DNA from: Mollicutes bacterium
GTDB lineage: Bacteria; Bacillota_I; Bacilli_A; RF39; UBA660
DNA: 64,000 bases
Assembly: GCA_012520435.1 (NCBI GenBank)
Contig: JAAYOI010000007.1
Location: 964-64,963, forward strand
Reading direction: 5' to 3'
Shown here: piece after piece, positions 11,379 to 57,103 of the stretch
Layout of the letters: every line of letters begins with the position of its first letter
Position numbering within the stretch: the stretch's first letter is position 1
Notes under the pieces: generated by a model
What the model was told of the DNA's origin: nothing
The model's input: only the letters and a program-made list of their open reading frames with translations
The model's database searches: none
Position numbers and translations under genes: made by a program

Positions 11379-11379
11379 G

Positions 11380-11406
11380 GATATAGAATTTTTATATCTT
11401 TTTTTC
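11380..11406 (+). terminator. intrinsic terminator after gltX
   Basis: gatata-gaatttt-tatatc hairpin followed by a T-run. Confidence 0.45.
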
Positions 11407-11446
11407 TAATATAATTAAATATATGTTATAATAAATAAGGTAAGAA

Positions 11447-11993
11447 GGTATAATATGGAAAAAGTAGATGTATATAATAAGAGGCATGAAAAGTTAAATT
11501 ATATTAAAGAGAAAAAAGAATTAGAGGTAGGAGAGTATCGTTTATCTTGTTTTGCATGGATTATCAATGATAAGATGAACTATTGATTTAACAAAGATTA
11601 GCAACCTCAAAAAAATTTCCTAATATGTGGGAAACAATATCAGGTGGTGCATTAGAAGGGGAATCTAGTTTAGATGGGATTATAAGAGAACTAGATGAAG
11701 AATTAGGAATAAAAGCTAATATTGAAGATTTAACTTTTATTGGTTTATATATAAGATATAATGATTTTGTAGAAATATGGGTTTTAAAAAGTAATATTGA
11801 CATTAATAATTTAAAATTACAAGATAGTGAAGTACAAGCAGTAAAATGGGTAACTATTTCTGAATATGAAGAAATGGTAAATAATAATACTGCTATTCCG
11901 ACAAGTTTTAATATATTTAAAACATATTATGAAGAATATTATGGTAAAAAAGTATCAGTTGTTGATGGAAAATTAGTAATTGAAAAAATATAA
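11447..11993 (+). pseudogene. Nudix hydrolase gene disrupted by frameshift(s)
   Basis: The N-terminal 46 codons (MEKVDVYNKRHEKLNYIKEKKELEVGEYRLSCFAWIINDKMNY) end at a TGA stop (11585-11587); Trp readthrough would only reach a TAG 12 nt later. The Nudix box (GGALEGESSLDGIIRELDEELGI) continues in a different frame (track ORF 11625-11993). The upstream in-frame sequence QRLATSKKFPNMWETISGG follows directly after a TAA. Confidence 0.6.
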
Positions 11994-14568: not shown

Positions 14569-14810
14569 TAACAAAATTTGAATAATTAAGAAGCGATGAT
14601 AAGGAAGTAGTATTAAAAGTTCTTATTTATAGAGAGTTAGTGGTTGGTGGAAACTAACAATAATCTTTTATGAATTCGTCCTTGGAGCTTTATATTCAAA
14701 AAATATAACGATGACGCGTTATAGTCTAAGAGGGTATAGAAATAAATTTATTTCTATGAAATAAGGTGGTACCGCGTAAATCACGTCCTTAATGGATGTG
14801 ATTTTTTTAA
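14569..14810 (+). promoter_or_regulatory. T-box riboswitch leader (Phe-specific, pheST)
   Basis: Conserved T-box sequence AAGGTGGTACCGCG at 14764-14777. Terminator atcacgtcc/ggatgtgat plus a T-run at 14779-14808. Stem I elements AGAGAG...GGTGGAAA are present. Candidate UUC specifier in GAATTCG. Confidence 0.8.
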
Positions 14811-15872: not shown

Positions 15873-18262
15873 TGCGTGTTAGTAAGAGTTTTTTAAGTGA
15901 TTATATCGATATTAATGATATTGATTTTCAAGAAATAGCTGATAAAATGGTATTTGCTGGTAATGAATATGAAAGCATTGAAAAGATTAGTAGTGCAACT
16001 AATTTAGTTGTTGGCTATATTCTTGATTGTCAAAAACATCCTGAATCAACTAAGTTAAGTATTTGTAAAGTTGACATTGGTGATGGCGAACATAAACAAA
16101 TTTTATGTGGAGCACCTAATGTTAGAACTGGTCAAAAAGTAATTGTTGCCAAAGTAGGGGCAACTTTACCGGGTGGGATTACCATTGGTAAAGCTAAACT
16201 AGCAGGACTAAAATCTGAAGGCATGATCTGTTCTTTAGCAGAACTTGGTATTGAATCAAAATATTTATCCGAAGAAGATAAAAATGGCATTCATGTTTTT
16301 CCTGATGATGCACCTATTGGTGAAGATGCGATTAAGTATTTAAGATATGATGATGAAGTAATCGATTTTGATTTGACCGCTAATCGTGGTGATTTACTTA
16401 GTATTTTAGGAATGGCTTATGAAATAGGAACTTTATATAATAAAAAAGTAAAAGAGCCAAATGTTGATGTTGAAGAAATAGATGAAGATATTCATGATAC
16501 TCGTCGATTAAAAGTCTTAACTGATAAATGTTCGATTTATTTAGGTAAATTAGTTAAAAATATTGTTATTAAAGAAAGCCCTCGTTTTATTCAAACAAGA
16601 TTGATGGCTAGTGGTATTAGACCAATTAATAATGTTGTTGATATTAGTAACTATGTTATGTTAGAATTTGGTCAACCATTACATTTCTTTGATGCTGATA
16701 AATTAGTTAAAAATGTTTATGTTAGAATGGCTGAAGAAAATGAAAAAATAACAACCTTAGATGGTATTGAAAGAACTTTAAGTAGTAATGATATTGTGAT
16801 TGCTGATGATAATGGACCAGTTGCTTTGGCGGGTGTTATGGGAGGACTATCAACCGAAGTAACTGAAGAAACCAAAAATATCTTTATTGAAGCTGCTATT
16901 TTCCATCCGTATAATATTCGTCATACTTCTAAACGTATTTTACGTAGTGAATCTAGTATGCGTTATGAAAAGGGAATTGATTCAGCTCGTACTTTACTAG
17001 CAATCAAAAGAGCATGTTATCTTTTAAATAAATATGCAAGTGGGGAAGTTGTAAGTGGTATTTTAACTCATGATGTAACTGATAAAAGTGATAAAAAGAT
17101 AACTATTACTATTGATAAAATAAATAATGTATTGGGAATGCAATTAGATAAAGATACTATTGCTGATGTTTTTGATAGATTACAATTTAAATATACAATT
17201 GATAAAAATACTTTTACGGTTTTAGTTCCAACTAGAAGATTAGATGTTAATATTAAAGAAGATTTAATTGAAGAAGTAGGTAGAATTGTTGGTTATGATA
17301 ATGTTAAAGGTATTTTACCAATTACTTCAATTAAAAGAGGTAGTTATTTACCAAAAACCGAATTTATTAAAAATGTTCGTAAAAGATTAACATCACTAGG
17401 ATTAAACGAAGTTATTACATATTCTTTAATTAGTGAACAAGATAGTGATAAATTTATTAAAGAAACTTATGAAAAAGTAATTTTAAATAATCCAATGAGT
17501 GAAGACCGAAAAATTATGCGTAATAGTTTAATTCCTTCTTTAATAGAGGTATATCATTATAATAGTTCACGTAATATTAAAGATGTTAATATTTTTGAAA
17601 TAGGATCTTGTTATTCTAAAGTTAATGAAGACTATGTTGAAGAAGCTAAAGTTAGTGGGCTATTATATGGCAATTATTTTATTAATGATTGGCAACATAA
17701 TATCATTAAAGTCGATTTTTATGTTTTAAAAGGTATTATTGAAAACTTACTAAAATATTTAGGATTAGCTAATCGTTATAATTTTAGTAATCAAGATTTA
17801 ATAAAAGATTTACATCCTGGTCGTAGTGCCAATATTATTGTTGATAATGAAATAATTGGTTATTTAGGTCAAATTCATCCAAACATTAACAAAAAAGAAA
17901 TATATGTATTTGAATTAAGTCTTGATAAATTAATGAATAAAAGAGTTCGTAATATTAAATTTAAAGAAATACCTAAATATCCAAGTATCAATAAAGATGT
18001 TGCTTTCATTGTTAATAAAAATATATCATCTATTGATATAGAAAAAGTCATTAAAAAAGTAAGTGGAAGATTACTTACAGAAGTTAATGTATTTGATGTT
18101 TATGAAGGAGAAAACATTGGTAAAGATAAAAAATCAATTGCTTATTCCTTAACTTTCCAAGATCCAAATAAAACTTTAACTGATGAAGAAGTAACAGTTA
18201 TCTTTAATAAGATAATTGAAGAAGTTAAAAAACAAATTGGTGGCGAAGTTAGAGATAAATAA
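15872..18262 (+). CDS. pheT: phenylalanine--tRNA ligase beta subunit
   Basis: 796 aa. tRNA-binding domain, B3/B4 and B5 domains, C-terminal FDX-ACB. Overlaps the pheS stop (ATGA). Confidence 0.92.
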   Translation: MRVSKSFLSDYIDINDIDFQEIADKMVFAGNEYESIEKISSATNLVVGYILDCQKHPESTKLSICKVDIGDGEHKQILCGAPNVRTGQKVIVAKVGATLPGGITIGKAKLAGLKSEGMICSLAELGIESKYLSEEDKNGIHVFPDDAPIGEDAIKYLRYDDEVIDFDLTANRGDLLSILGMAYEIGTLYNKKVKEPNVDVEEIDEDIHDTRRLKVLTDKCSIYLGKLVKNIVIKESPRFIQTRLMASGIRPINNVVDISNYVMLEFGQPLHFFDADKLVKNVYVRMAEENEKITTLDGIERTLSSNDIVIADDNGPVALAGVMGGLSTEVTEETKNIFIEAAIFHPYNIRHTSKRILRSESSMRYEKGIDSARTLLAIKRACYLLNKYASGEVVSGILTHDVTDKSDKKITITIDKINNVLGMQLDKDTIADVFDRLQFKYTIDKNTFTVLVPTRRLDVNIKEDLIEEVGRIVGYDNVKGILPITSIKRGSYLPKTEFIKNVRKRLTSLGLNEVITYSLISEQDSDKFIKETYEKVILNNPMSEDRKIMRNSLIPSLIEVYHYNSSRNIKDVNIFEIGSCYSKVNEDYVEEAKVSGLLYGNYFINDWQHNIIKVDFYVLKGIIENLLKYLGLANRYNFSNQDLIKDLHPGRSANIIVDNEIIGYLGQIHPNINKKEIYVFELSLDKLMNKRVRNIKFKEIPKYPSINKDVAFIVNKNISSIDIEKVIKKVSGRLLTEVNVFDVYEGENIGKDKKSIAYSLTFQDPNKTLTDEEVTVIFNKIIEEVKKQIGGEVRDK

Positions 18263-21141: not shown

Positions 21142-21271
21142 ATTCGCACCTCTTATTAAATTATAACACATTTCGACTTTATAGAGTAATAAAAACATCT
21201 TTTTTCTAGTTTTGTCGAAACTATTTATAATTTAAAAAGGGGGTGTTATTATTTAGGAGGACGGTGATAAT

Positions 21272-21511
21272 ATGAAACTTGATATGGAATATACCAAAAA
21301 CACTCTATATATAAATATATCGGGTATTATTAATAGAGACGGAATAAAAAAATTAAGAAAAAAAATGTTTTATATTATTGAAGAATATAATATTTATGAT
21401 ATTGTTATCGATATTAAAAATAAATTATCAATGGATGCGGATGCCTTTTATAATTTGTTAGATGAATATGATATAAAATATGGCGGGAATTTAATTGTAG
21501 TCGATAAATAG
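21272..21511 (+). CDS. small hypothetical protein (79 aa), possibly STAS-like
   Basis: ORF with GGAGG RBS. Followed by two palindromic hairpins at 21512-21570. Confidence 0.35.
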   Translation: MKLDMEYTKNTLYINISGIINRDGIKKLRKKMFYIIEEYNIYDIVIDIKNKLSMDADAFYNLLDEYDIKYGGNLIVVDK

Positions 21512-23636: not shown

Positions 23637-24086
23637 ATGAAGAATAAAGTTGGTTTTTTTAATGAAACAGATGAAGAAATAAAAGAATTAGAAGAAATAA
23701 AAAAGTTAATAGAATATGCTTTAAAAAGGGAAAAATTAGAAAATGTTGAATTTAATATTGTTATTGTCGATAATGCAACGATTCATAAATTAAATAATGA
23801 ATATCGGGGGGTTGATAGTCCCACAGATGTTTTATCTTTTGCTTTAGAAGATAATTTGGATATTAAATTACCTGGTATTAGATTACTAGGTGATATTTAT
23901 ATATCATTAGATAAATTAAAAGAACAAGCCAAAGAATATGGTCATAGTTTTTTAAGAGAACTAGCTTTCCTTACCATTCATGGATTTTTACATTTATTAG
24001 GATATAATCACATGGATCAAAAAGAAGAAGAAATAATGTTTAAAAAGCAGGAGTTGATTTTAGATGGATATGGAATTAAGAAATAA
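23637..24086 (+). CDS. ybeY: rRNA maturation RNase YbeY
   Basis: HGFLHLLGYNHMD zinc-binding motif. 149 aa. Confidence 0.88.
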   Translation: MKNKVGFFNETDEEIKELEEIKKLIEYALKREKLENVEFNIVIVDNATIHKLNNEYRGVDSPTDVLSFALEDNLDIKLPGIRLLGDIYISLDKLKEQAKEYGHSFLRELAFLTIHGFLHLLGYNHMDQKEEEIMFKKQELILDGYGIKK

Positions 24087-30284: not shown

Positions 30285-30743
30285 ATGGAAAAATTTAACC
30301 GTACACTTCGTGGCTATAATCCAGCAGAAGTAAATCGTTTTTTAGATCAAGTTATTAAACAAGTTGAGGAAATGGTTAATGAGCTAAAAGTTAAAAATGA
30401 ACGTATTATTGAATTAGAAAAAGTTGAGCAAGAAAACCAAATTTTAAGAGACAAATTAGGACAATATGAAAGAATGGAAGAAACTTTAAATAAAGCAATT
30501 TTAATGGCTCAAAGAACTTCTGATCAAATTAGGAGTGCTGCTCAACAAGAAAGAGAAACTATTATTGAGGATGCTAAAAGGAATGCTAGTCGCATTGTTA
30601 ATGAAGCTTTACTTCGTGCTGAAAAAACAGAATATGAGGCTAGTATGCTTAGACGAAATTTAAATGTTTTTAAAAGACGTTTACGCGATATTATCGAATC
30701 TCAATTAGAATTTGTTGATGATATTGAAAAAATTGAATTATAA
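30285..30743 (+). CDS. divIVA: cell division/septum-placement protein DivIVA
   Basis: RGYNPAEVNRFLDQV DivIVA N-domain followed by coiled coil. Start chosen at the second ATG, 7 nt after the GGGG RBS; 30282 is an alternative. Confidence 0.8.
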   Translation: MEKFNRTLRGYNPAEVNRFLDQVIKQVEEMVNELKVKNERIIELEKVEQENQILRDKLGQYERMEETLNKAILMAQRTSDQIRSAAQQERETIIEDAKRNASRIVNEALLRAEKTEYEASMLRRNLNVFKRRLRDIIESQLEFVDDIEKIEL

Positions 30744-30759
30744 AAACAGATGATGGAGA

Positions 30760-30960
30760 CGGTATGTTACAGCGTTTTATAGAGAGTTAGTGGTTGGTGG
30801 AAACTAACAAACAAATAATATACGGATCACTCCTGATGTATCTTCTCGATAAGTAGGGAAGAATCGCAAGTTGCGTTATCAAAAATAAGTGCGTAAGTAA
30901 ATTACGAATTAAGGTGGTACCGCGTTCAAAACGTCCTTAAAATTAAGGATGTTTTTTTAA
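30760..30960 (+). promoter_or_regulatory. T-box riboswitch leader (Ile-specific, ileS)
   Basis: T-box sequence AAGGTGGTACCGCG at 30911-30924. Terminator cgtccttaa/ttaaggatg plus TTTTTTT. The 34-nt stem I module is identical to that of the pheS leader. AUC (GGATCAC) is the candidate specifier. Confidence 0.8.
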
Positions 30961-33750: not shown

Positions 33751-34458
33751 TTAGCTATTATTTTTGTTTTTAATAAATTCCCTTAATATTTTAGTTAGAG
33801 CTCTTTTTTCAATTCTTGATACATAACTTCTTGATATTCCTAATTGTTCGGCAATTTCTTTTTGAGTTATTTCTTCATGTCCATCTAAACCATATCTTTT
33901 ACAAATGATTTCTTTTTCACGATCAGTTAAAACATTAAAATATTGTTTTAGTAAAGAAATATTATTTTGTTTATGAAGATCCATCGCAAAATCAGGTTTA
34001 GGTGTTTTTAAAATATCTAAAAAGGTTATTTCGTTACCATCTTTATCAAACCCAATTGATTCGGTAATACTAATATTTTTACTATTTTTTTTATCACCTC
34101 TAAAATACATAAGGATTTCATTTTCAATACATCTTGCACAATAAGTAGTTATTTTCGTTCCATGTTTATAAGAATAACTATCAACTCCTTTAATAAGACC
34201 AATCGTTCCAATACTAATTAAATCATCAATATCTTCTTTTTTATGATTATATTTTTTAACAATATGAGCAACTAATCTTAAATTGTGTTCAATTAATTTA
34301 TTACGTGCCTCCTTATCACCTAATTTAGATCTCCTTATACATTCTTCTTCTTCTTCTTTAGATAAAGGATCAGGAAAAACATTATTAGAGTAAGCAGCAG
34401 TAAAGATATAAAAATCTTTAAATATTTTTTTAATCAGTTTCCATAGCATCAAAATCAC
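33751..34458 (-). CDS. sigK: sporulation sigma factor SigK (pro-sigma-K, uninterrupted)
   Basis: The pro-sequence/region 2 NNVFPDPLSKEEEEEC...NKLIEHNLRLVAHIVKKY...DLISIGTIGLIKGVDSY...YCARCIENEILMYFR and the C-terminal ISRSYVSRIEKRALTKI are near-identical in pattern to B. subtilis SigK (NNAFPQPLSSSEEKKY...NMLIEHNLRLVAHIVKKF...ISRSYVSRIEKRALMKM). Confidence 0.82.
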   Translation of the reverse strand: MILMLWKLIKKIFKDFYIFTAAYSNNVFPDPLSKEEEEECIRRSKLGDKEARNKLIEHNLRLVAHIVKKYNHKKEDIDDLISIGTIGLIKGVDSYSYKHGTKITTYCARCIENEILMYFRGDKKNSKNISITESIGFDKDGNEITFLDILKTPKPDFAMDLHKQNNISLLKQYFNVLTDREKEIICKRYGLDGHEEITQKEIAEQLGISRSYVSRIEKRALTKILREFIKNKNNS

Positions 34459-36496: not shown

Positions 36497-38215
36497 GTGA
36501 TATTAATGAGAAAGAATATATTTAATAAAATAGTGATTTTAGGTATTTTGATATTTCTTTTTGGTTTATATTTATTACTAAGCGAAAATTTTAATATTGA
36601 AAATTTTGATCAAACAATTGGTAGTAAACAATTTAATGTTCTAAAATGGTCAAAAAGTATAGGAACAAGTAAATATAAAGTTATTATTAAAAATAATAAT
36701 AAAATTATAAAAGAAATAATAACTCCTAATCATGAACTTATTCTTGATGATTTAAATCTTACTTCTAATTCTTTTACGGTTGATGTTATTGCCTATCACA
36801 AACTAAAAAGACAAGTTAAACGTTCTAAAACTTTTAATTGGAATTTACCACTCATTCAACTTAATAAAGAGGAAATACCGGTATTAAGTAAAAGCGATAT
36901 TACCGATGTTACAATTAATTTAATAAATAATGCTAATCAAGATAATTATATAATTGTTTCAAAAGAAGGGAAGGATTTAAAACATTTAAATATTGAAGAA
37001 AATAAAATAAGTGCCTCATTTTTTAAAGATTTAGATGATTATTTAGGAACTTATGAAATTATGTTATGTCAAGATTATAATGATAAAAAAATAATCTTAC
37101 ATAAAACATATCTTAATATCATACCTAAACCCATTACTGATATTGTTATCAATCAACCATTAAATAATAGTGAAGTTTCTTTAGATGATTTAATTATTAA
37201 TTTTAGTGGTGGAAAATATGCTGATAAATATTATTATAGTTTACAGGATCAAGATGGAAAAATAATAATTGATAAAGCTTTAATTGATTCTCAACAATTT
37301 ATAATTTCTAAAGATTATTTAAATCCAGAAGAAAAGTATACTTTAATTATTACAGGTCAACATTTTTTAGATAATAATGTAACCAAATCTGTTAAACTAA
37401 ATTTTAAAGTAGCGCCTCTTAATAAAGTTAGTCAAATTATTAGTACTAAACCAAGTGGGGAAATTGGTAAAAATAGAGCAGTTAGACTTTTAACTTATAC
37501 AAATGATGCCCAAATTTATTATACCCTTGATGGAAGTATACCAACTAAAAATAGTATTGAATATAAGGGATCAATTTTTATTGATCGAGATGTAACATTA
37601 AAAGCGATTGCAGTAAAAGAAGGTATGATTGATAGTGATATTTTAGAACTCCAATTTAAAGCAGTTGAAAAAGAACCAGTTATATATTTAAGTCCTTCCA
37701 TTCAAAATGAAAATTATGGTGTAAAAAAGGCTGGATATACAACCGAAAGAGAAATGATGAACAAAATAAGTGATTATATTGAAGAACGTTTAAAACAAAA
37801 AAAGATAATTGTTTATCGCAATCATCCTGATATGACTTTGTCAGAGATTGTCAATGAATCGTCAAAATATGATGTAGATTTACACCTGGCTATTCATTCT
37901 AATAAATTTAATGGTAAGGTTTCAGGTGTAGAAACTTGGATTCATGAATATGAAGTAGGCAAAGCTTATGAAATTGCTAGTTTGATTCAAAAGGCATTAA
38001 TGCAAATTTATTATAATCCAAAAGGAAATCGTGGTATTAAATATAATAATGAAATAGATGAAATGCGTGAGACAAGTCCTAAGAATGTTACGAATGGAGT
38101 ATTAGTAGAAATCGCTTTTCATGATCATTATAAAGATGCCAAATGGATAGTTGATAATCAAAAGAAAATAGGTTATGCGATTGCTGATGCGGTAGCAAGT
38201 TATTTTGGGAGATAG
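36497..38215 (+). CDS. membrane-anchored cell-wall hydrolase: Fn3-associated/chitobiase-C-like domain plus Amidase_3-like (MurNAc-L-Ala amidase) C-terminal domain
   Basis: N-terminal TM segment. AQIYYTLDGSIPTKNSIEYKGSIFIDRDVTLKAIAVKEG is a typical Fn3-associated motif. The C-terminal region (DVDLHLAIHSNKFNGKVSGVETWIH, preceded by IYLSPSIQNEN in place of the usual xDxGHGG) resembles the Amidase_3 family with an atypical first motif. Confidence 0.45.
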   Translation: MILMRKNIFNKIVILGILIFLFGLYLLLSENFNIENFDQTIGSKQFNVLKWSKSIGTSKYKVIIKNNNKIIKEIITPNHELILDDLNLTSNSFTVDVIAYHKLKRQVKRSKTFNWNLPLIQLNKEEIPVLSKSDITDVTINLINNANQDNYIIVSKEGKDLKHLNIEENKISASFFKDLDDYLGTYEIMLCQDYNDKKIILHKTYLNIIPKPITDIVINQPLNNSEVSLDDLIINFSGGKYADKYYYSLQDQDGKIIIDKALIDSQQFIISKDYLNPEEKYTLIITGQHFLDNNVTKSVKLNFKVAPLNKVSQIISTKPSGEIGKNRAVRLLTYTNDAQIYYTLDGSIPTKNSIEYKGSIFIDRDVTLKAIAVKEGMIDSDILELQFKAVEKEPVIYLSPSIQNENYGVKKAGYTTEREMMNKISDYIEERLKQKKIIVYRNHPDMTLSEIVNESSKYDVDLHLAIHSNKFNGKVSGVETWIHEYEVGKAYEIASLIQKALMQIYYNPKGNRGIKYNNEIDEMRETSPKNVTNGVLVEIAFHDHYKDAKWIVDNQKKIGYAIADAVASYFGR

Positions 38216-41740: not shown

Positions 41741-43291
41741 ATGAAAAAATATTATCTTTTTTTATTTTTGTTTTTCTTTTTAATTAGTAATGTTAAAGCA
41801 GAAACTTATTATTCTCCATATACCGATTTTAGTGAATGGACTACTACTTATGTAAAAGAAGATGATATTACGATTGTTGAAGGTGAAAGAAGATATAAAT
41901 GGTATAAAGAAGGAAAAATATTAGGAGATTATTATATTGAAGGAGAAAATAATCCTAATTTTCCTTTAATTGATTATGAAGATTTTATTGTAACTTCTTT
42001 TTCAGAATGGAGTAAGACAAAACCAGAAGAAAAGTTAAATCGGCTTATTAATGAAAGAACATTATACGAATATCAAGATATGAAAGAAGTTCGTTATATT
42101 CATTTAAGTAATTTACAAGGTAGTTATGGATCATTGCGAATAAGTGAAATTGAGGTATATGTTGATAATAATAAAATATCTTATAGTTATTATTGTGAAG
42201 GATGTAATTCTGATTTTAAAGATCATATTAACAATGGTAAAACGATTGAAAATATGTCTTATATTAATAATAATGGTTATCTTCGAATTGATTTAAATAA
42301 TTATTATTCAATTGATCGTATTAATCTTAAGTTATATCTTTTTGATGTGGGAACTACTACCAAAAAATATGATATTAAAATTACTAGAGAAAAAAATTTA
42401 AATAGTACTAGTTATTTAGAAAAGAAAGTTTCACTTAATTTTTCTTGTGAAAAATTAAGTGAGATAATTCCTTTTACTTATAATTATTTAAATATGAATA
42501 TTACTAATCTTGAATGGTATGAGAAAAAAGAATCTTTAGATTATATTGAATCAACACCCACAAGAAAAGTTAATCCAATAAAAGAATATCAATATCAAGA
42601 TAAATTATATCGTTATTATAAATTAGAAAAAGAATATTCTAATGATTATTATAAAGAAGAACCTGTTAATTATCCTAAAAAAGATGAAAATATGTATCAA
42701 GATTATTATCGTTATAAAAAACGTGATAAAGTTGTTATTCAAGATGAACTATTAATTACTGATTATGATATTACTTTATGGGATTTTATTATTAGTAGTA
42801 CAACTAATAATATTCAAATAGAAAGTAATCTTGATATTAATAAAAATGGTGTTTATAAAGTTAAATATATTTTACCTTTTGAAACTATTATTAAGAATGT
42901 TGAAGTTAATATTCCTGATAATAATTTAGATAATCAATTAGATAAATTAAATCAAGAAATAAAAAACTTAAAAGAAGATAATTTAAATCTTTTAGAAACT
43001 ATTAAAATAAAGGATCAAAAAATAAAAGAATTAGAAAATAATAATCAAGTAAATAAGCAAACAAATAAAAAAAATAAAACATCTTTACAAGAATATCAAG
43101 ATAAAACAAATAATCAAAATAATAAATTAGAAGAAATATTAAATAAGAATCAGTTATTAGAGAATGATAATATGAAATTAAGTACTAAAAAATCATCATT
43201 TATTGATAATGATATGGTATTAACTAGTTTATTTATTTTTTTAATTTGTTATTTAATCATTTTAATAATTAAGAAAAAAAAGTCGATTTAA
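41741..43291 (+). CDS. secreted Tyr-rich surface protein with C-terminal coiled coil and TM anchor
   Basis: Signal peptide (LISNVKA/ETYY). Tyr-rich globular region. An N/K/Q-rich coiled coil (about 410-480). C-terminal hydrophobic anchor followed by KKKKS. Confidence 0.45.
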   Translation: MKKYYLFLFLFFFLISNVKAETYYSPYTDFSEWTTTYVKEDDITIVEGERRYKWYKEGKILGDYYIEGENNPNFPLIDYEDFIVTSFSEWSKTKPEEKLNRLINERTLYEYQDMKEVRYIHLSNLQGSYGSLRISEIEVYVDNNKISYSYYCEGCNSDFKDHINNGKTIENMSYINNNGYLRIDLNNYYSIDRINLKLYLFDVGTTTKKYDIKITREKNLNSTSYLEKKVSLNFSCEKLSEIIPFTYNYLNMNITNLEWYEKKESLDYIESTPTRKVNPIKEYQYQDKLYRYYKLEKEYSNDYYKEEPVNYPKKDENMYQDYYRYKKRDKVVIQDELLITDYDITLWDFIISSTTNNIQIESNLDINKNGVYKVKYILPFETIIKNVEVNIPDNNLDNQLDKLNQEIKNLKEDNLNLLETIKIKDQKIKELENNNQVNKQTNKKNKTSLQEYQDKTNNQNNKLEEILNKNQLLENDNMKLSTKKSSFIDNDMVLTSLFIFLICYLIILIIKKKKSI

Positions 43292-43366
43292 AATAAATTC
43301 TATTTTTGTCGGATTGGTATAAAAAAGAGAATAGGTGTGCTAAATTATTAAGGAAGAGGTGATTAA

Positions 43367-43714
43367 ATGTTAGAAATTACAACTGAGTTTCGTAAAGGTG
43401 TTTTGTTTGTTCGTTTAAGTGGTGAACTCACCAAACAAACAGTAGATAAATTAAATAAAGAAGTAACATCTTTAATTAAAGATAATGGGATTAGAAATAT
43501 TGTTTTTAATATCAAAGATTTAAATATGATTGATATTAAAGGTATTAATGCTTTACTTTATAATTATGAATTATCTAAAGCTAATAATGGTAAAGTATGT
43601 GTTTGTGGAATTAAAAATCCACTAGTAAGTCAACGTATTAGAAATAGTCGATTATTAAAATATATGTATGAATCTAGTGATGAGTTAGGGGCTTTTAATA
43701 TCATTAATTTATAA
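43367..43714 (+). CDS. spoIIAA: STAS-domain anti-sigma-factor antagonist (SpoIIAA-like) lacking the phosphorylatable serine
   Basis: 115 aa. Aligns to B. subtilis SpoIIAA (LCIRLTGEL / IRHIVLNLEDLSFMDSSGLG versus LFVRLSGEL / IRNIVFNIKDLNMIDIKGIN). The Ser58 position is Lys here. Confidence 0.65.
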   Translation: MLEITTEFRKGVLFVRLSGELTKQTVDKLNKEVTSLIKDNGIRNIVFNIKDLNMIDIKGINALLYNYELSKANNGKVCVCGIKNPLVSQRIRNSRLLKYMYESSDELGAFNIINL

Positions 43715-43723
43715 GGTGATAAT

Positions 43724-44392
43724 ATGGTACAAGAACTTAATGATATTATTTTAGAAAACCAAAATTTAATTTATTCTTTAACGCATTATTTTGAAGGATA
43801 TCATAGTAAAGAAGATTTATTTCAAGTAGGAGTAATTGGGCTTATTAAAGCCTATAAAAAATATAATAATCATATGGATGTTAAATTTACTACTTATGCT
43901 TATCCTTTTATTTTAGGAGAAATGCGTAAATATGTAAGAGAAGATAAAGGTATTAAAATAAGTCGTGATATTATTAAACTTAATTTAAAAATCGAAAAAG
44001 CTAGTATTCTTTTATCACAAAAATTGATGCGTGAACCAACGATTAAAGAACTTGCCCATTATCTTGAAATTCCTGAAGAATCAATTGTTGAAGCTAAAAA
44101 AACAATTAATGTTTTACAAAGTTTAGATGAACCAATAAATAGTAAAGATGGTAAAGAAATGAGTTTACATGAAACAATAAGTAATATTAATAATATGGAT
44201 TTAACTAGTTTAATTCAATTAAAAGATGAACTTAATAATTTAACACCTTTTGAAAAAAGTCTTATTCAAGCTAGATATATAAATGATTTAACGCAACAAG
44301 AAACAGCTGAATTTTTAGGTATAAGTCAAGTCCAAGTATCAAGAAAAGAACAAAAAGTAATAACTAAACTTCGAAACAAACTATTGAATTAG
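43724..44392 (+). CDS. sigF: sporulation sigma factor of the SigF/SigG/SigB group (SigF by context)
   Basis: DLFQVGVIGLIKAYKKY, YAYPFILGEMRKYVRED and LGISQVQVSRKEQK match SigF regions 2 and 4 (DLFQIGCIGLLKSVDKF; LGISQVQVSRLEKK). Located 10 nt after spoIIAA and followed by spoVA genes, as in the B. subtilis spoIIA-spoVA neighbourhood. Confidence 0.7.
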   Translation: MVQELNDIILENQNLIYSLTHYFEGYHSKEDLFQVGVIGLIKAYKKYNNHMDVKFTTYAYPFILGEMRKYVREDKGIKISRDIIKLNLKIEKASILLSQKLMREPTIKELAHYLEIPEESIVEAKKTINVLQSLDEPINSKDGKEMSLHETISNINNMDLTSLIQLKDELNNLTPFEKSLIQARYINDLTQQETAEFLGISQVQVSRKEQKVITKLRNKLLN

Positions 44393-44451
44393 TTTGTTTT
44401 TTGTATATATTGTAAAAACTTTTTCATAATAAAATTAGGAGGAAATAAAGA

Positions 44452-44892
44452 ATGGAAAAGAATCGTTATAAAGATTTAGTTAATAAACATACACCTAAAG
44501 AAAATCGTTTATATAATATCATGGTAGCTTTTATAACAGGTGGTTTAATGGGATTATTAGGTGAATTTTTAATTCAAGTATATTCTTATTTTTTGAATAT
44601 TCCATCTAAAGAAGCATCAACCTTTATGATTATTACTTTAGTTTTATTTGGTACATTATTTACTAGTTTAGGTTTTTTTGATAAATGGGTTAATTTTGCG
44701 AAATCTGGATTAATTATTCCGATTACTGGTTTCGCCCATGCGATGATGAGTGCGAGTTTAGAATATAGAAAAGAAGGATTAGTTACAGGTATAGGTACTA
44801 ATATGTTTAAATTAGCTGGTAGTGTTATTATTTTTGGTACTGTTAGTGCTTATCTTGTAGGTTTAATAAGATTAATACTATTTGGAGGTTAG
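44452..44892 (+). CDS. spoVAC: stage V sporulation protein AC
   Basis: 146-aa four-TM protein. ITGGLMGLLGEF...GFAHAMMSASLEYRKEGLVTGIGTNMFKLAGSVI is typical SpoVAC. Confidence 0.85.
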   Translation: MEKNRYKDLVNKHTPKENRLYNIMVAFITGGLMGLLGEFLIQVYSYFLNIPSKEASTFMIITLVLFGTLFTSLGFFDKWVNFAKSGLIIPITGFAHAMMSASLEYRKEGLVTGIGTNMFKLAGSVIIFGTVSAYLVGLIRLILFGG

Positions 44893-44895
44893 AAC

Positions 44896-45885
44896 ATGAC
44901 ATTTAAATATAATAATGTATATATTAATGAAACCAGTACGGTAGTAGGACCTTATGAAAAAAAAGGACCTTTAAATAATTATTTTGATAAAAGTTATGAT
45001 GATTTATATTTTGGTACTAAAACATGGGAACAAGCAGAAATGAAATTAATCGAAGAAAGTGTTAATATTTTATTAAAAAAGTTAAAGAAAAATCGATTTG
45101 ATATCGATTTACATATTTCTGGTGATTTATTAAATCAAATTGTAGCTAGTAATTATGCAGCTGCACGTTTAGGAATACCTTTTTTAGGCGTTTATAGTGC
45201 GTGTGCTAGTAGTGTTGAAGGATTGATATTAGGTGCCAATATGATTGAAGCAGACCAAATAAAAAATTGTATATGTAGTGCATCTTCCCATAATAATGCG
45301 GCTGAAAAACAATTTCGTAATCCGGTTGAATATGGTGGACCAAAACCAAAAACAGCTACTTTTACAACTACTGGTGGTGCAAGTGCCTATTTATCTTCTA
45401 ATAAAAAAGGAATAAAAATTGAAAGTAGTACGATTGGTACGGTTCAAGATTTAGGGATTACCGATGCTTTTCATATGGGAGCAATTATGGCTCCAGCAGC
45501 TGGTGATACAATCTATCAACATTTAAATGATTTAAAAAGAGAAATCGATTATTATGATTTAATTTTAACTGGTGATTTAGGTGTTTATGGTAAAAAAATA
45601 TTAGTTGATTATATGCAAACAGAATATGGAATTGAACTTAAAAATTATGATGATACAGCAACCATAATTTATGATTTAGATGAGCAACCAGTTTATGCAG
45701 GAGGAAGTGGATGTGCTTGTGCACCACTTGTTACTTATGGTTATATTTTTAGGAAAATGCATAAAAATGAATATCGCCGAATTTTATTAGTAGCAACCGG
45801 TGCCTTACTTTCTACTACCATGGTTAATCAAAAACTTTCCATTCCTTCAATTGCTCATGCTATTAGTTTGGAGGTTATAGAATGA
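44896..45885 (+). CDS. spoVAD: stage V sporulation protein AD
   Basis: 329 aa, thiolase/FabH-like fold. Family-typical N-terminus (YNNVYINETSTVVGPYEKKGPL...YDDLYFGTKTWEQAE) and active-site region (GVYSACASS). Confidence 0.85.
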   Translation: MTFKYNNVYINETSTVVGPYEKKGPLNNYFDKSYDDLYFGTKTWEQAEMKLIEESVNILLKKLKKNRFDIDLHISGDLLNQIVASNYAAARLGIPFLGVYSACASSVEGLILGANMIEADQIKNCICSASSHNNAAEKQFRNPVEYGGPKPKTATFTTTGGASAYLSSNKKGIKIESSTIGTVQDLGITDAFHMGAIMAPAAGDTIYQHLNDLKREIDYYDLILTGDLGVYGKKILVDYMQTEYGIELKNYDDTATIIYDLDEQPVYAGGSGCACAPLVTYGYIFRKMHKNEYRRILLVATGALLSTTMVNQKLSIPSIAHAISLEVIE

Positions 45886-46232
45886 ATTACGTAAATGCTT
45901 TTCTTTTTTGTGGCTTAGTATGCGTTATTGCCCAAATCATTCTTGATAATACAAAACTTACACCTGGTCATGTAACAACCATTTTTGTAGTCGTAGGAAC
46001 CTTCTTAGATGTATTTAATTTTTATGATAAATTTGTTCTTTGGGCTGGTGGTGGAGCCTTAGTTCCCATTACTAGTTTTGGTCATTTATTAATTCATGGT
46101 GCTTTAGCCAAGGCTGCCAATTTTGGTGTAATGGGATTAAGTTTAGGAATGTTTGATTTAGTTTCATCCGGTGTTATAGCTGCCATTTTCTTTTCTTTCC
46201 TTTTTTCACTTGCCTTTAAACCAAGAGATTAG
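45882..46232 (+). CDS. spoVAEB: stage V sporulation protein AEb
   Basis: 116-aa membrane protein. LTPGHVTTIFVVVGTFLD...GGGALVPITSFGHLL...GVMGLSLGMFDL is typical SpoVAEb. Overlaps spoVAD by 4 nt. Confidence 0.8.
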   Translation: MNYVNAFLFCGLVCVIAQIILDNTKLTPGHVTTIFVVVGTFLDVFNFYDKFVLWAGGGALVPITSFGHLLIHGALAKAANFGVMGLSLGMFDLVSSGVIAAIFFSFLFSLAFKPRD

Positions 46233-46252
46233 TTACCATTATGGTAACTATT

Positions 46253-46905
46253 TTAGTTTTTATGACGTACAGTTGTATATATTAATCGATGATCCGAAAT
46301 TTCTTTTGTTTCGTTAGGATTTAATATACCAAATGATTCAATATCCCAATTATGAGGAACAAAAATATGATCTAGTGTTTTTTCTTCACCCTTTTTTGAA
46401 ATCCATGTTGCTTGATTAATTGGAATTCTTTGCATTTCACATTGATCTTTTAATAAATAATCAAGGTGAGTATTAATCATACAGATATGATTGAATTTTT
46501 TATTTTTTACTATTACAGCTGTAGCTATTCTAGGCATTAGTGCAGCTTTATAGATAGTTTTAATCAATAATTTAGGATTAGAAGGAATCCACGGTAATTT
46601 ATGAGTATTTGAATAAATTACTTCTTGATCGGTTATAATGGCATTGTTTTCATTGTAAGGAAATTTAGTTAAAAATTTATTTCCATAGCGATAATTTTCA
46701 TAAAAGCCATAGTTAGGTAAATGCATCATCATATTATTAGTAAGTTTTTTAGTTATTCTTGTGTTCCCCAAAAATCGAATTCATATTTTTGAATTAAAGT
46801 AGCTATTTTTATCGCTTGAACTATATAATTATTGCGATTTGTACTATTATTTTTGATATTAAAAGAACCAATAAATAAATTTTCCATATTACTTCCTTAT
46901 AAAAT
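46253..46905 (-). pseudogene. endonuclease/exonuclease/phosphatase (EEP)-family gene split by a 1-nt frameshift
   Basis: N-terminal fragment (revcomp 46905-46774): MENLFIGSFNIKNNSTNRNNYIVQAIKIATLIQKYEFDFWGTQE, ending at TAA. It continues in the -1 frame as the track ORF 46253-46771 (LGNTRITKK...GNAIIT...LDHIFVPHNWD...SDHRLIYTTV) with EEP hallmark motifs. The break lies in the A-rich sequence GAATAACTAAAAAA. Confidence 0.55.
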
Positions 46906-53623: not shown

Positions 53624-54649
53624 ATGGAAAACATATACGGGTATACGTTAAGTAGACTCGAAAATTATTTTATAGAAAGAAATGAAAAAAAGTTTAGAGT
53701 TATTCAAATATATGAATGGTTATATAAAAAAAGAGTTAATAGTTTTGATGAAATGACAAATATAAAAAAAGAACTTATTGAAGAATTAAAAAAAGAATTT
53801 AATTTAAATAAATTAAAAATTATTAAAAGATTAGATGGTAAAGATGTTCATAAATATTTATTTGCATTAGAAGATGGTAATAAAATTGAAGCTGTTTTAA
53901 TGAAACATAATTATGGTAATAGTTTATGTTTATCAACCCAAGTTGGTTGTAATATGGGGTGTACTTTTTGTGAAAGTGGAAGATTAAAAAAGGTAAGAAG
54001 TTTATATCCTCATGAAATGGTTTTACCGATATTACAAATTGAAAGCGATTTAAATATAAGAATTACTCATTTAGTTATTATGGGTATTGGTGAACCATTT
54101 GATAATTATGACAATGTTATGGAATTTATTAATATTGTCAATCATCCTAAAGGAATTGATATAGGAGCACGTCATATAACGATTTCTACTTGTGGTATCA
54201 TTCCTAAAATTGAAGAATTTATGAAATCAGGAAAACAAGTCAATCTAGCGATTTCCCTTCATGCTCCTAATGATGAATTAAGAAATAAATTAATGAGTAT
54301 TAATAAAGTTTATAAACTTAAAGATTTAATCGAGGTTATTAAAAAATATATTAAAGTAACTAAAAGACGAGTAACTTTTGAATATATTATGTTAAAAGAT
54401 ATTAATGATACACCAGAACTAGCTCATGAGCTTGTTAATTTATTAAAGGGAATTAATTGTTATGTTAATTTAATTCCTTATAATGAAACAAGTCATCATC
54501 GTTATCAAAAAAGTCCTAAAGAAAATATCATGAGATTTTATGACATTTTACAAAAAAATAAAATTAATGTAACGATAAGAAAAGAGTTTGGTAGTGAAGT
54601 TATGGCCGCTTGTGGACAACTCCGCTCGAACTATGAGGAGGAAAAATAA
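53624..54649 (+). CDS. rlmN: 23S rRNA/tRNA adenine-C2 methyltransferase RlmN (radical SAM)
   Basis: CLSTQVGCNMGCTFCESG radical-SAM cluster motif and the C-terminal Cys (MAACGQL). Located upstream of prpC-prkC as B. subtilis yloN is. Confidence 0.85.
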   Translation: MENIYGYTLSRLENYFIERNEKKFRVIQIYEWLYKKRVNSFDEMTNIKKELIEELKKEFNLNKLKIIKRLDGKDVHKYLFALEDGNKIEAVLMKHNYGNSLCLSTQVGCNMGCTFCESGRLKKVRSLYPHEMVLPILQIESDLNIRITHLVIMGIGEPFDNYDNVMEFINIVNHPKGIDIGARHITISTCGIIPKIEEFMKSGKQVNLAISLHAPNDELRNKLMSINKVYKLKDLIEVIKKYIKVTKRRVTFEYIMLKDINDTPELAHELVNLLKGINCYVNLIPYNETSHHRYQKSPKENIMRFYDILQKNKINVTIRKEFGSEVMAACGQLRSNYEEEK

Positions 54650-55383
54650 TGCAATATTATTATGCGACTGATTCGGGAAAAGTTAGAAGTCATAATGAAG
54701 ATAGTGTTATTATTGTCGAAAATGAAAATAAAGAATATTTAATGGTAGTTGCTGATGGAATGGGTGGACATCGTGCAGGTGAAATCGCATCCAATATCGC
54801 CGTTTCTCAACTTAGTAAAAGTTTTCAAGAAAAAGAAACCTTAGGTAGTAAGGAAGAAGCTATCAATTGGTTAAAAGATGTTGTTAGCGAAGCTAATATG
54901 TTAATTTATAAATATACGCAAGCTTATCCTGAAAGTTTAGGTATGGGAACGACGATTATTGTATGTGTTTTAACTAAAGATTACTTATTATTTGGTAATA
55001 TTGGAGATAGTTCGGGTTTTGTTATTAAAAATAAAAAATTACATAAAATCACAACGGATCATACTTTAGTTAATTTACTTGTCAAATCTGGTGAAATAAC
55101 GGAAGAAGCAGCTAAAGAACATCCTCGTAAAAATGTTTTAATGAAAGCTTTAGGAGCAACCACTTCCGTTGAAATGGATATTTTTGATGTAGAAATTGAT
55201 GTTGATGGTATTTTATTATGTAGTGATGGTTTAACTAATTTGTTAGATATTGAAGCTATAAATAGAGTTTTAAATGAGGATTTAACTTGTGAAGAAAAGG
55301 TAAAAAAACTAATTATTAAATCAAATAATCGTGGTGGCACCGACAATATTTCTATTGCTTATTTAGTAAAGGATGGTGATTAG
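54649..55383 (+). CDS. prpC: PP2C-family Ser/Thr phosphatase PrpC/Stp
   Basis: VADGMGGHRAGEIAS and DGLTN PP2C motifs. 244 aa. Confidence 0.85.
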   Translation: MQYYYATDSGKVRSHNEDSVIIVENENKEYLMVVADGMGGHRAGEIASNIAVSQLSKSFQEKETLGSKEEAINWLKDVVSEANMLIYKYTQAYPESLGMGTTIIVCVLTKDYLLFGNIGDSSGFVIKNKKLHKITTDHTLVNLLVKSGEITEEAAKEHPRKNVLMKALGATTSVEMDIFDVEIDVDGILLCSDGLTNLLDIEAINRVLNEDLTCEEKVKKLIIKSNNRGGTDNISIAYLVKDGD

Positions 55384-55384
55384 G

Positions 55385-57103
55385 ATGATTAATAAAGGAC
55401 AAAAGATTAATGACCGTTACCAAGTCGTTAAAATGATTGGTGAAGGTGGCATGGCTAATGTTTATTTAGCTTATGACACCATATTAGATCGTTATGTAGC
55501 TGTCAAAGTATTACGTGGTGACTTGGCAACTGATGAAAAATTTATTAGAAGATTTCAAAGAGAAGCTATTGCAGCTAGTTCTTTAAGTCATCCTAATATT
55601 GTGGAAATATATGATGTTGGTGAAGATAATGGTAAATATTTTATTGTTATGGAATATGTTAACGGCAAAACTTTAAAGAGTTTAGTTAAAAAACGTGGTG
55701 CTTTAACACTTCATGAAGTTGTTGATATTATGTTACAACTAACAAGTGCGATTGCTTGTGCCCATAATAGTTATATTATTCATCGTGATATTAAACCCCA
55801 AAATATTTTAATATTAGATGATGGTCGTGTTAAAATTACTGATTTTGGGATTGCCATGGCTTTAAATCAAAAAGAATTAACCCAAACTAATTCGGTTATG
55901 GGTTCAGTTCATTATTTACCACCAGAACAAGCTAATGGTTCAGGCTCAACCATTAAAAGTGATATTTATTCTTTAGGTATTTTAATGTATGAATTATTAA
56001 CCGGTAAAGTTCCTTTTAGAGGGGAAAATGCGGTTGAAATTGCGATAAAACAAATGAAGGAACAAATTCCTAGTGTTTGTCAAATTAATCCTGATATTCC
56101 TCAAAGTATTGAAAATATTATTTTAAAAGCATGTGCTAAAAATCCTAAAAATCGTTATGATAGTGTTTCTGAAATGTATCAAGATTTAGAAGTAGCTCTC
56201 AAAGAAGAAAATTCAAATGTTCGTCGAATTGTTTATAAATATCCAGAACATGAATTAGAAGAAACAAAAGTAATGCCAAAAGTTAATGAAATAAAAGAAA
56301 AATTAAAGGATCAAAATAGTGAAGATAGTATGAGTGATGGAAATGATAAAACAATTAATAAGATTTTAATTATTTTAGTATCTATTTTTATTGGTTTGGT
56401 TGCTTTGGGATGTTTGGCTATTATTATATATCCTAAGTTAACTGAAAAACCAGAAATTACAATACCAGATGTTTCAGGGTTAACAGTTGTTGAAGCTGAA
56501 AAACAATTAGAAAAATTAGGTTTTGTCGTAAGCAATGATGTAGAAGAAAAACATAATAGTGATATTGAAGAAGGAAAAGTTATTGGTACAAAACCACAAG
56601 TAGGAAGAAGTGTTAAGAAGGGAACAACTGTAACTTTAATTGTATCTTTAGGATCCAGAGGAATAACCTTAGAAGATTACGTTGGTAAAAATTATTATGA
56701 AGTAAAAGCCACTTTAGAAGCTGTTGGAATAAATGTTATTATTGAAGAAAAAGAAGTTGAAGATAAAACCAATGTTAAAGCTGATATAATTATTGAACAA
56801 AGTATAGAACCAGGTACAGAATTAACTGAAGGTGATACCATTATCTTATATATTCCTGATATTGTTACGGAATATCCTGATTTTGTAACTGAAGGTTGGA
56901 GCGTTAAAGAAATAGAAGCCTTTTGTGATGAATATGATATTAATTTAAATATTAATTATCAAGAAACAGAAGAATATCCTGATGGAACAGTTTTAGCTCA
57001 AAGTTTTCCAGCTGGAAGACGAGTTGTCCCTAATACAACTTTAACCATTACTGTAGCAACCCCTCCAGTTCAAGAACCTATTGAAGAGGAACCTACAGAA
57101 TAG
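55385..57103 (+). CDS. prkC: Ser/Thr protein kinase PrkC with C-terminal PASTA repeats
   Basis: Kinase subdomains (GEGGMANVYLA...VAVK; HRDIKPQNIL; DFGIA). A TM helix. Three PASTA-like repeats (PDVSGLTVVEAEKQLEKLGF...). Start set at MINKGQ, just after the prpC stop. Confidence 0.85.
   Translation: MINKGQKINDRYQVVKMIGEGGMANVYLAYDTILDRYVAVKVLRGDLATDEKFIRRFQREAIAASSLSHPNIVEIYDVGEDNGKYFIVMEYVNGKTLKSLVKKRGALTLHEVVDIMLQLTSAIACAHNSYIIHRDIKPQNILILDDGRVKITDFGIAMALNQKELTQTNSVMGSVHYLPPEQANGSGSTIKSDIYSLGILMYELLTGKVPFRGENAVEIAIKQMKEQIPSVCQINPDIPQSIENIILKACAKNPKNRYDSVSEMYQDLEVALKEENSNVRRIVYKYPEHELEETKVMPKVNEIKEKLKDQNSEDSMSDGNDKTINKILIILVSIFIGLVALGCLAIIIYPKLTEKPEITIPDVSGLTVVEAEKQLEKLGFVVSNDVEEKHNSDIEEGKVIGTKPQVGRSVKKGTTVTLIVSLGSRGITLEDYVGKNYYEVKATLEAVGINVIIEEKEVEDKTNVKADIIIEQSIEPGTELTEGDTIILYIPDIVTEYPDFVTEGWSVKEIEAFCDEYDINLNINYQETEEYPDGTVLAQSFPAGRRVVPNTTLTITVATPPVQEPIEEEPTE

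Follow-up and report, generated by a model that had tools for sequence, protein, structure and literature searches.

An apparently lineage-wide spoIIAA-sigF operon without the kinase gene spoIIAB in RF39-type Mollicutes

The SpoIIE/SpoIIAA/SpoIIAB switch, which activates sigma F, is the textbook case of how two cell fates are set up. How can sigma F be controlled where the operon encoding this switch contains no gene for the kinase SpoIIAB? This question is raised by a locus in a 64,000-nucleotide stretch of a Mollicutes bacterium genome (assembly GCA_012520435.1, contig JAAYOI010000007.1, positions 964 to 64,963), hereafter called the window, which has a G+C content of about 25%. Here, a gene for a STAS protein derived from SpoIIAA is followed by a gene for a SigF-like sigma factor and by spoVAC, spoVAD and spoVAEb, the genes of the dipicolinate channel. 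An earlier reading of the locus, the original prediction, had proposed that sigma F regulation is either rewired in this lineage or that the module is a degenerate relic. The operon consists of the following elements.

43367-43714, + strand: STAS gene, SpoIIAA-derived; 115 amino acids; Pfam STAS (PF01740) 56.4 bits, E 2.8e-15
43713-43719, + strand: ribosome-binding site AAGGTGA of the sigma gene, read from the sequence; overlaps the STAS stop codon
43724-44392, + strand: SigF-like sigma gene; 222 amino acids; contains regions 2, 3 and 4; SigF is the best NCBIfam model
44452-44892, + strand: spoVAC; score 162.8 against an equivalog cutoff of 164 (Pfam and NCBIfam)
44896-45885, + strand: spoVAD; score 411.6 against an equivalog cutoff of 411.8
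45882-46232, + strand: spoVAEb; score 126.7 against an equivalog cutoff of 131.1
46230-46250: terminator-like hairpin at the end of spoVAEb

The STAS stop codon ends at position 43714 and the sigma gene starts with its ATG at position 43724. The spacer of 9 nt contains the ribosome-binding site of the sigma gene and thus leaves no room for another gene, as had been claimed for spoIIAB. The direct adjacency of both genes was correctly described before, whereas the spacing of 10 nt given at that time has to be corrected to 9 nt. Profile searches confirmed all five open reading frames and with them the proposed B. subtilis-like spoIIA-spoVA synteny. The overlap of ribosome-binding site and stop codon is read as translational coupling of the STAS-sigma pair. 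A read-through fusion of the two proteins was also considered, as both reading frames lie in the same frame in the window with a single TAA between them. It was rejected because the gap amounts to 4, 8, 10, -8 or -11 nt in other species and the frame relation varies accordingly. The best sequence and structure matches of the two proteins, SpoIIAA and SigF, together with the retained spoVA synteny support a descent of the operon from spoIIA.

The distribution of the arrangement was analyzed by scanning a one-genome-per-species collection with the STAS family alignment. This yielded 235 confirmed matches, the best 80 of which were retrieved with their loci. These 80 loci belong to metagenome-assembled genomes (MAGs) labelled Mollicutes, Tenericutes or Bacilli and originate from digesters or from the guts of chickens, rabbits, ruminants and humans; two lie on complete or near-complete chromosomes of 1.20 Mb (JBAMOY010000001.1, locus L020) and 1.49 Mb (OW818670.1, locus L079). 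Acholeplasma sp. CAG:878 is among them, and the genus CAG-878 is placed by GTDB in the family CAG-822 of the order RF39 (PMC8035907). Consequently, the relatives are RF39-type "Mollicutes/Bacilli" MAGs and not the Erysipelotrichia and Clostridia that had been expected. In 73 of the 76 loci with the sigma gene on the contig, this gene starts between -32 and +14 nt from the STAS stop codon. The coupling of STAS and sigF is held over a deep divergence (53-79% identity) although the neighbouring genes vary; spoVAC, spoVAD and spoVAEb follow the sigma gene in about half of the loci. The same STAS protein with the same neighbours occurs on at least 23 independently assembled contigs, and an identical protein is named "MAG: anti-sigma factor antagonist [Mollicutes bacterium]" at NCBI. 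Since at least 23 contigs share the junction and the architecture recurs in 80 species, misassembly is excluded; no assembly among them places spoIIAB next to the STAS gene. Judged from these genomes, the kinase-less spoIIAA-sigF arrangement is lineage-wide in the order RF39 and in related uncultured Bacilli with small genomes.

Searches of all frames of the 64 kb window by phmmer and tblastn, in which SpoIIAB of B. subtilis (validated against the PDB) and of G. stearothermophilus served as queries, revealed no SpoIIAB-like sequence. Likewise, no SpoIIAB-like open reading frame was present within ±10 kb of 86 loci. Thus no GHKL (HATPase_c) anti-sigma kinase is linked to the STAS and sigma genes in the operon, the window or these flanking regions. 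The sole PP2C phosphatase of the window is Stp1, paired with PrkC (54649-57103). Several candidates were tried and rejected. An open reading frame at 23637-24086 (149 amino acids) matched SpoIIAB at noise level only (E 0.13) and represents YbeY. The single large STAS-sigma gap among the 76 loci, 1.5 kb in locus L024, holds an inserted metK gene (10557-11723) and neither spoIIAB nor any other hidden gene. As for a new anti-sigma factor encoded upstream, neither of two neighbours is universal. The first precedes the STAS gene directly in 37 of 80 loci and is located in the window at 41741-43291 (+). Its product of 516 residues carries a signal peptide and a membrane anchor at the C-terminus, has a long coiled-coil tail rich in Asn and Lys, and matches no Pfam family. 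The second is a conserved open reading frame of 85-89 codons (...LELIKFN.LKK...FIREFRLNNQ...), located upstream and mostly immediately before the STAS gene in about 21 loci of one sub-lineage (for example L036 8063-8326, L053 9601-9858, L063 9595-9864 and L057 6860-7129). It matches no known family and is absent from the window.

With respect to the rest of the genome, a gene-content survey of RF39 based on KEGG orthologues reported a diminished presence or a full lack of spoIIAB and spoIIE (Microb Genom 2024, PMC10868615). At the presence/absence level, the lack of both enzymes has thus been reported before, and from this survey we infer that no kinase is encoded elsewhere. The survey also lists spoVB as reduced or absent (PMC10868615). 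The window contains a SpoVB-like flippase gene (157.8 bits versus a cutoff of 372), which suggests that diverged genes may be under-called in the survey. Two further weak matches of the sporulation type are a coiled-coil M23 peptidase faintly resembling SpoIIQ and a large Amidase_3 protein faintly resembling CwlD.

4255-5907, 2301-3515 and 36497-38215, all + strand: the three weak sporulation-type matches, listed together

Is the STAS protein still a SpoIIAA? It passes the superfamily cutoffs of PF01740 (56.4 versus 22.6 bits) and TIGR00377 (56.7 versus 53.45 bits). On the SpoIIAA equivalog TIGR02886 it scores 58.8 bits and stays below the cutoff of 114.75 bits, yet this is the best-scoring model. 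Compared to solved SpoIIAA structures the protein shows 33-34% identity (phmmer E 1e-14). The AlphaFold2 (AF2) model has a predicted local distance difference test score (pLDDT) of 97.4, and its helix 2 begins exactly at residue 57. The top Foldseek matches of the model are the SpoIIAA chains 1thn_B and 1tid_B with a template modelling (TM) score of 0.91 and a root mean square deviation of 1.4-1.6 Å. TM scores range from 0.88 to 0.92 across SpoIIAA chains; RsbV, RsbS, TM1442 and the STAS domains of SLC26/SulP proteins were matched as well. According to the model, the protein has the SpoIIAA fold, a beta-sheet of four or five strands with four helices.

At the phosphorylation loop the alignment to the SpoIIAA structures is ungapped, and D57-S58-S59-G60 of B. 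subtilis corresponds to D56-I57-K58-G59 of the window protein. The loop thus reads DIKG, as originally described. The first serine of the DSSG motif is the acceptor, since the S-to-A crystal variant 1TID reads DASG at this point. Consequently, phospho-Ser58 is replaced by Ile57 and not, as had been stated, by lysine; Lys58 stands in place of Ser59. The proposal that the antagonist is no longer a substrate of a SpoIIAB-type kinase is borne out for the canonical site, and no serine or threonine comes to lie there in the proper alignment.

This loss is not restricted to the window. Among 120 protein clusters with 56-100% identity, none carried serine or threonine at position 57, and only one had serine at position 58. 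In the species loci, position 57 is almost always occupied by I, M, L, C, V or Y (Ser 0/80, Thr 1/80), so that the comparison of relatives suggested by the original prediction reveals a lineage-wide loss of the serine. A wider family set was obtained by a profile search of 1.84 billion representatives, which retrieved 271 proteins at E <= 1e-10; column statistics refer to the best 150 of these 271, representatives at 50% identity. Position 57 is occupied by L21 I19 S19 E17 K14 N11 M9 Y8 and others; its information content of 0.67 bits is one of the lowest in the protein. Asp56 and Gly59, which flank the site, are near-invariant (141/150 and 143/150, respectively). Three distant members with serine at this position were checked; they are encoded in STAS-sigma operons without spoIIAB (sigma factors of 213-219 amino acids), and spoVA follows in two of them. 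In the simplest reading of these alignments, the acceptor residue ceased to be constrained when the kinase was lost.

The identity of the sigma factor was examined with family models. The best one, SigF (TIGR02885), scored 192.7 bits versus a cutoff of 321.45 and covered only profile positions 13-231. SigG (149/139 bits) and SigB (131 bits) scored lower, all far below cutoff, and the SigF/SigG subfamily NF004052 gave 189.8 bits versus 311 with a match beginning at position 34. The closest PDB match is sigma F from the complex with SpoIIAB (1L0O_C, E 4e-40), in which residue 6 of the query corresponds to residue 31 of the chain; the second, 8x6g_H (E 3e-29), is a sigma factor of 256 residues. 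The start of the window protein corresponds to about residue 26-34 of canonical SigF; hence the N-terminal segment of about 25-30 residues is missing. The sigma proteins of the relatives are likewise short (214-234 amino acids). In locus L016 a separate, full-length canonical SigG (374.5 bits versus a cutoff of 372) is encoded at 16133-16933 (+), 5 kb downstream of the STAS-sigF pair; it is followed at 16967-17206 by an open reading frame of 79 codons which resembles YlmC/YmxH by eye only. On the SigF model this SigG scores 273.9 bits, above the clade's own SigF-like protein. The sigma factor is taken to be the sigma F orthologue, since its gene sits between a SpoIIAA homologue and spoVA and a separate SigG exists.

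Both proteins of the pair are thus remote from their curated families. The score-to-cutoff ratios are 0.51 for STAS and 0.60 for SigF, compared to 0.8-1.0 for SigK, SigG, SpoVAC, SpoVAD, SpoVAE and YqfD. By this measure STAS and SigF stand out as the two that evolve fast, whereas the rest of the gene set is conservative. At the same time both are under purifying selection. Against the nearest species the STAS gene shows a nonsynonymous divergence (dN) of 0.14 versus a synonymous divergence (dS) of 1.03, and the median identity to the window protein in at least 70 species is 0.59 for STAS and 0.58 for sigma. Pairwise distances of STAS and sigma in 33 species, controlled for the three SpoVA proteins, gave a partial Mantel r of 0.44 (0 of 2000 permutations), above the values of 0.28-0.34 for pairs of SpoVA subunits. 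This co-variation supports a continuing functional link between the two proteins; it leaves physical contact unproven. The lineage-wide arrangement, the lineage-wide loss of the serine and purifying selection on both genes speak for the first alternative of the original prediction, a rewired regulation of sigma F.

Are the regulatory elements of the operon retained as well? The following elements were recognized upstream of the STAS gene and of spoVAC.

43298-43313, + strand: extended Spo0A-box-like element TTCTATTTTTGTCGGA with the core TGTCGGA at 43307-43313; about 55-70 nt before the STAS ATG
43317-43323, + strand: GTATAAA block, 3 nt after the 0A-box block; conserved in most of 66 regions
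43336-43347, + strand: TGTGCTAAATTA block, about 13-14 nt after GTATAAA; fits an extended -10 element, TRTGn + TAAATT
44403-44431, + strand: forespore-type promoter GTATA-N17-CATAATA upstream of spoVAC

The 0A-box consensus is TGTCGAA. Of 66 related upstream regions, 55 carry TGTCGAA or TGTCGGA between -56 and -64 relative to the ATG, and a conserved TTCTAGTTTTGTCGAA block surrounds this core. In the window, 14 matches to the 0A box were found versus 21.8 expected, and the single match is not significant by itself. The weight of the element therefore comes from its conserved position across species, and its assignment to Spo0A from the consensus is probable. Most of the 66 aligned regions share the sequence and spacing of GTATAAA and TGTGCTAAATTA, two putative promoter elements, which are followed by the ribosome-binding site. 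A generic sigma-70 scan detected no full -35/-10 promoter before the STAS gene, which would be expected if the promoter depends on an activator. GTATA also fits a forespore -35 element; a second, sigma F/G-dependent promoter may therefore lie upstream of the STAS gene, for which the dacF-spoIIA read-through of B. subtilis is an analogue. The promoter upstream of spoVAC perfectly matches the forespore (sigma G/F) consensus known from B. subtilis; the window contains no second exact match, with 0.12 expected. G[ACT]AT[AG]-N17/18-CAnnnTA lies before spoVAC in 42 of the 45 related loci. Judged from the consensus sequences of the conserved 0A-box promoter and the conserved spoVAC promoter, the module is apparently activated by Spo0A and leads on to forespore-type promoters, as in the model organisms.

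An exact copy of the TTCTAGTTTTGTCGAA 16-mer at 21204-21219 is the only other good copy in the window. It precedes a small gene for a truncated SpoIIAA paralogue, which we call mini-STAS.

21272-21511, + strand: mini-STAS, truncated SpoIIAA paralogue; 79 amino acids, monocistronic, upstream of yqfC-yqfD

Mini-STAS matches no Pfam family. Its relation to the STAS family was revealed by hhalign (97.3% probability, E 1.7e-11), TIGR02886 (E 7e-5) and the SpoIIAA structure 1AUZ (E 3e-4). The AF2 model (pLDDT 92.9) has the topology b1-b2-a1-b3-a2-b4 without the C-terminal helices, and SpoIIAA is again the best Foldseek match (TMq 0.80). The equivalent of the phosphorylation site reads D-A-D-A and contains no serine. 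The family comprises at least 166 protein clusters of 74-95 amino acids, all "hypothetical" where the source names them, and a position upstream of yqfC-yqfD was also found in the two other genomes checked. As two SpoIIAA-derived proteins share the Spo0A-box motif and no kinase is present, one may speculate that the STAS module was reused in the rewiring and that mini-STAS is a further component of the system.

What does the operon do without its kinase? Anatomy, breadth, selection, the lost constraint at the phosphorylation site and the conserved motifs together make it very probable that it is a functional SpoIIAA-sigma F module that is independent of kinase and phosphorylation. In the explanation which we favor, with a probability of roughly one half, the STAS protein regulates sigma F independently of phosphorylation. 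An ancestral spoIIAA-spoIIAB-sigF operon would have cleanly lost spoIIAB and become a two-gene coupled unit beside spoVAC, spoVAD and spoVAEb. The operon is probably still activated by Spo0A at the onset of sporulation via the conserved 0A-box promoter, and its sigma factor probably still drives forespore-type promoters such as the one before spoVAC. The phosphorylation cycle of SpoIIAB kinase and SpoIIE phosphatase would no longer act on the STAS protein, so that the acceptor position was freed while the fold and the Asp and Gly residues were kept. The STAS protein would still regulate sigma F through phosphorylation-independent protein binding because it is selected for, always made together with sigma, and has diverged and co-varied with it. 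The most likely mode would be a direct stoichiometric binding, helped by translational coupling, to the N-terminally shortened sigma F, with STAS acting as inhibitor or chaperone; we propose this specific mode tentatively, as one possibility that is somewhat less probable than not.

Several points weigh against this explanation. The evidence for a contact of STAS and sigma is indirect. Shared rate shifts or linkage can also produce a mirror-tree correlation. The variability at positions 57 and 58 shows that the old function was lost, but does not hint at a new specific contact there. A SpoIIAB/RsbW-type protein that is unlinked or very diverged may exist. KEGG-orthologue calls can miss diverged proteins, and STAS and SigF themselves fall below curated cutoffs. 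Finally, no member of the clade has been cultured, and its sporulation is unproven.

Some of these points lead to other explanations. An anti-sigma factor, either a diverged or kinase-dead SpoIIAB/RsbW or an unrelated protein, might persist at an unlinked place and meet the STAS protein as a permanently "on" antagonist, whose amount, stability or localisation instead of its phosphorylation would set sigma F activity. The SpoIIAA fold and the loops facing SpoIIAB are kept, the best structural matches come from SpoIIAB complexes, and phosphorylation-independent antagonists such as RsfA of M. tuberculosis exist elsewhere. The survey wording is also merely "reduced presence or complete absence", although the same survey reports spoIIAB and spoIIE as lacking in RF39 (PMC10868615). 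However, partner-switching genes are normally linked, and none was found in the operon, within ±10 kb of the 86 loci or in the 64 kb window, while positions 57 and 58, the centre of the would-be interface, are among the least constrained. We thus regard a hidden anti-sigma factor as rather unlikely. Still less probable is that the STAS protein has nothing to do with sigma F and was kept for another job, such as binding of small molecules or proteins, with the adjacency being historical and sigma F controlled purely at the transcriptional level or by other factors. The unconstrained phosphorylation site, the versatility of STAS domains as binding modules (compare the SLC26/SulP matches) and the truncated SpoIIAA paralogue away from any sigma gene would fit this. 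It is at odds with the tight coupling to sigF in 73 of 76 loci despite varying neighbours and only 53-79% identity, and with a STAS-sigma co-variation that tops all pairs tested, both proteins being accelerated relative to their families.

The second alternative of the original prediction, a relic decaying in a lineage that no longer sporulates, is rejected as very improbable. RF39 relatives do have reduced genomes and no cultured spore former, one machine-learning tool assigns RF39 MAGs a sporulation probability of 0% (PMC12536801), and STAS and sigma score below the curated family cutoffs. But the STAS protein is as conserved as sigma, 80 species have intact open reading frames, dN falls far short of dS, and the promoter motifs including the 0A box are conserved. 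Moreover, spoVAC, spoVAD, spoVAE, yqfC, yqfD, SigK and SigG are intact and near-canonical, and disrupted reading frames are limited to low-coverage contigs such as L003 and L005. An artefact of assembly or gene calling that hides or drops spoIIAB has practically negligible probability: nothing speaks for it except the general unreliability of MAGs, whereas the 9-nt spacer carries a ribosome-binding site, the identical junction comes from at least 23 contigs of different samples, and many assembling groups and two complete chromosomes contributed to the 80 species with the same architecture.

Other sporulation genes are found in the surroundings of the operon. About 9 kb upstream an uninterrupted SigK gene is located at 33751-34458 (-), which scores 305 bits versus a subfamily cutoff of 252 and encodes only a short N-terminal extension resembling a pro-sequence. 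The genes yqfC and yqfD are kept in the window and in relatives. Downstream of the operon, at 46253-46887 (-), two overlapping open reading frames of 172 and 44 codons without a family match resemble one gene split by a frameshift; the pair is called identically on the independent contigs L001 and L002. Two T-box leaders (126 bits each) were detected on the + strand at 14587-14793, upstream of pheS/pheT, and at 30741-30941, upstream of a gene which by eye is likely that of isoleucyl-tRNA synthetase.

How does the operon compare to known systems? With the canonical spoIIA operon of B. subtilis and G. stearothermophilus (1AUZ, 1H4Y, 1TH8/1THN/1TID/1TIL, 1L0O) it shares a STAS protein of the SpoIIAA fold, a SigF-like sigma factor in the same operon, spoVA immediately downstream, a probable Spo0A-dependent promoter and a forespore-type promoter on spoVA. 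In contrast to that operon, it has no spoIIAB, an isoleucine in place of Ser58 (variable in the clade) and no spoVAA/AB, its sigma factor is about 25-30 N-terminal residues shorter, and both proteins score far below the SpoIIAA and SigF cutoffs. The antagonist RsfA of M. tuberculosis is a phosphorylation-independent anti-anti-sigma factor that acts on UsfX/SigF (related structure 8IH8, UsfX-RsfB). Our system resembles it as a STAS antagonist in a SigF-type system without a Ser/Thr phosphorylation switch, but RsfA-type systems have the GHKL-type anti-sigma factor UsfX as STAS partner and none is linked here. Candidatus Arthromitus also has a small genome with a reduced sporulation set including four sigma factors, spoVAC/AD/AE and yqfC/D. 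Unlike the operon described here, which misses the kinase gene, this streamlined spore former retains SpoIIAA, SpoIIAB and SpoIIE (Galperin et al. 2012, PMC3533761).

The RF39 survey (PMC10868615) provides a presence/absence table, and the clade analyzed here includes an RF39 genome (CAG-878). Not contained in it are the retained STAS-sigF operon, the loss of the phosphorylation site, the selection on STAS, the promoter motifs and the truncated paralogue. Our literature search retrieved no description of a two-gene STAS-sigF operon, a freed phosphorylation site, STAS selection, a shortened and accelerated sigma F or the promoter motifs. The finding is real and lineage-wide and was partly anticipated by a gene-content survey.

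Comparative studies found the genes for SpoIIE, SpoIIAA and SpoIIAB in every spore former, even the most streamlined (PMC3533761; bioRxiv 10.1101/2022.02.25.481979). A gut and digester clade with genomes of 1.2-1.5 Mb breaks this pattern of universal presence and keeps sigF, SpoIIAA, SigG, SigK, spoVA and yqfC/D under selection. Judging from these gene sets, the textbook switch for forespore gene expression must work differently in the clade. Either there is a new way of holding and releasing sigma F, or forespore-specific control is possible without it. A more far-reaching version, which we consider rather doubtful, is that an order-level clade of predicted endospore formers runs its first compartment-specific sigma factor without SpoIIAB and SpoIIE, with the STAS protein as direct regulator (anti-sigma factor or chaperone) of the shortened sigma F and mini-STAS, apparently also under Spo0A control, as its competitor or partner; if true, this would be a kinase- and phosphatase-free partner switch made of STAS modules alone. 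Whichever of the two general alternatives holds, the minimal needs of cell-specific sigma F activation become testable with two or three small proteins. Sporulation predictors based on spoIIAB and spoIIE will label these organisms as non-sporulating. If they do sporulate, the organisms with chromosomes of 1.20 and 1.49 Mb would be among the endospore formers with the smallest genomes.

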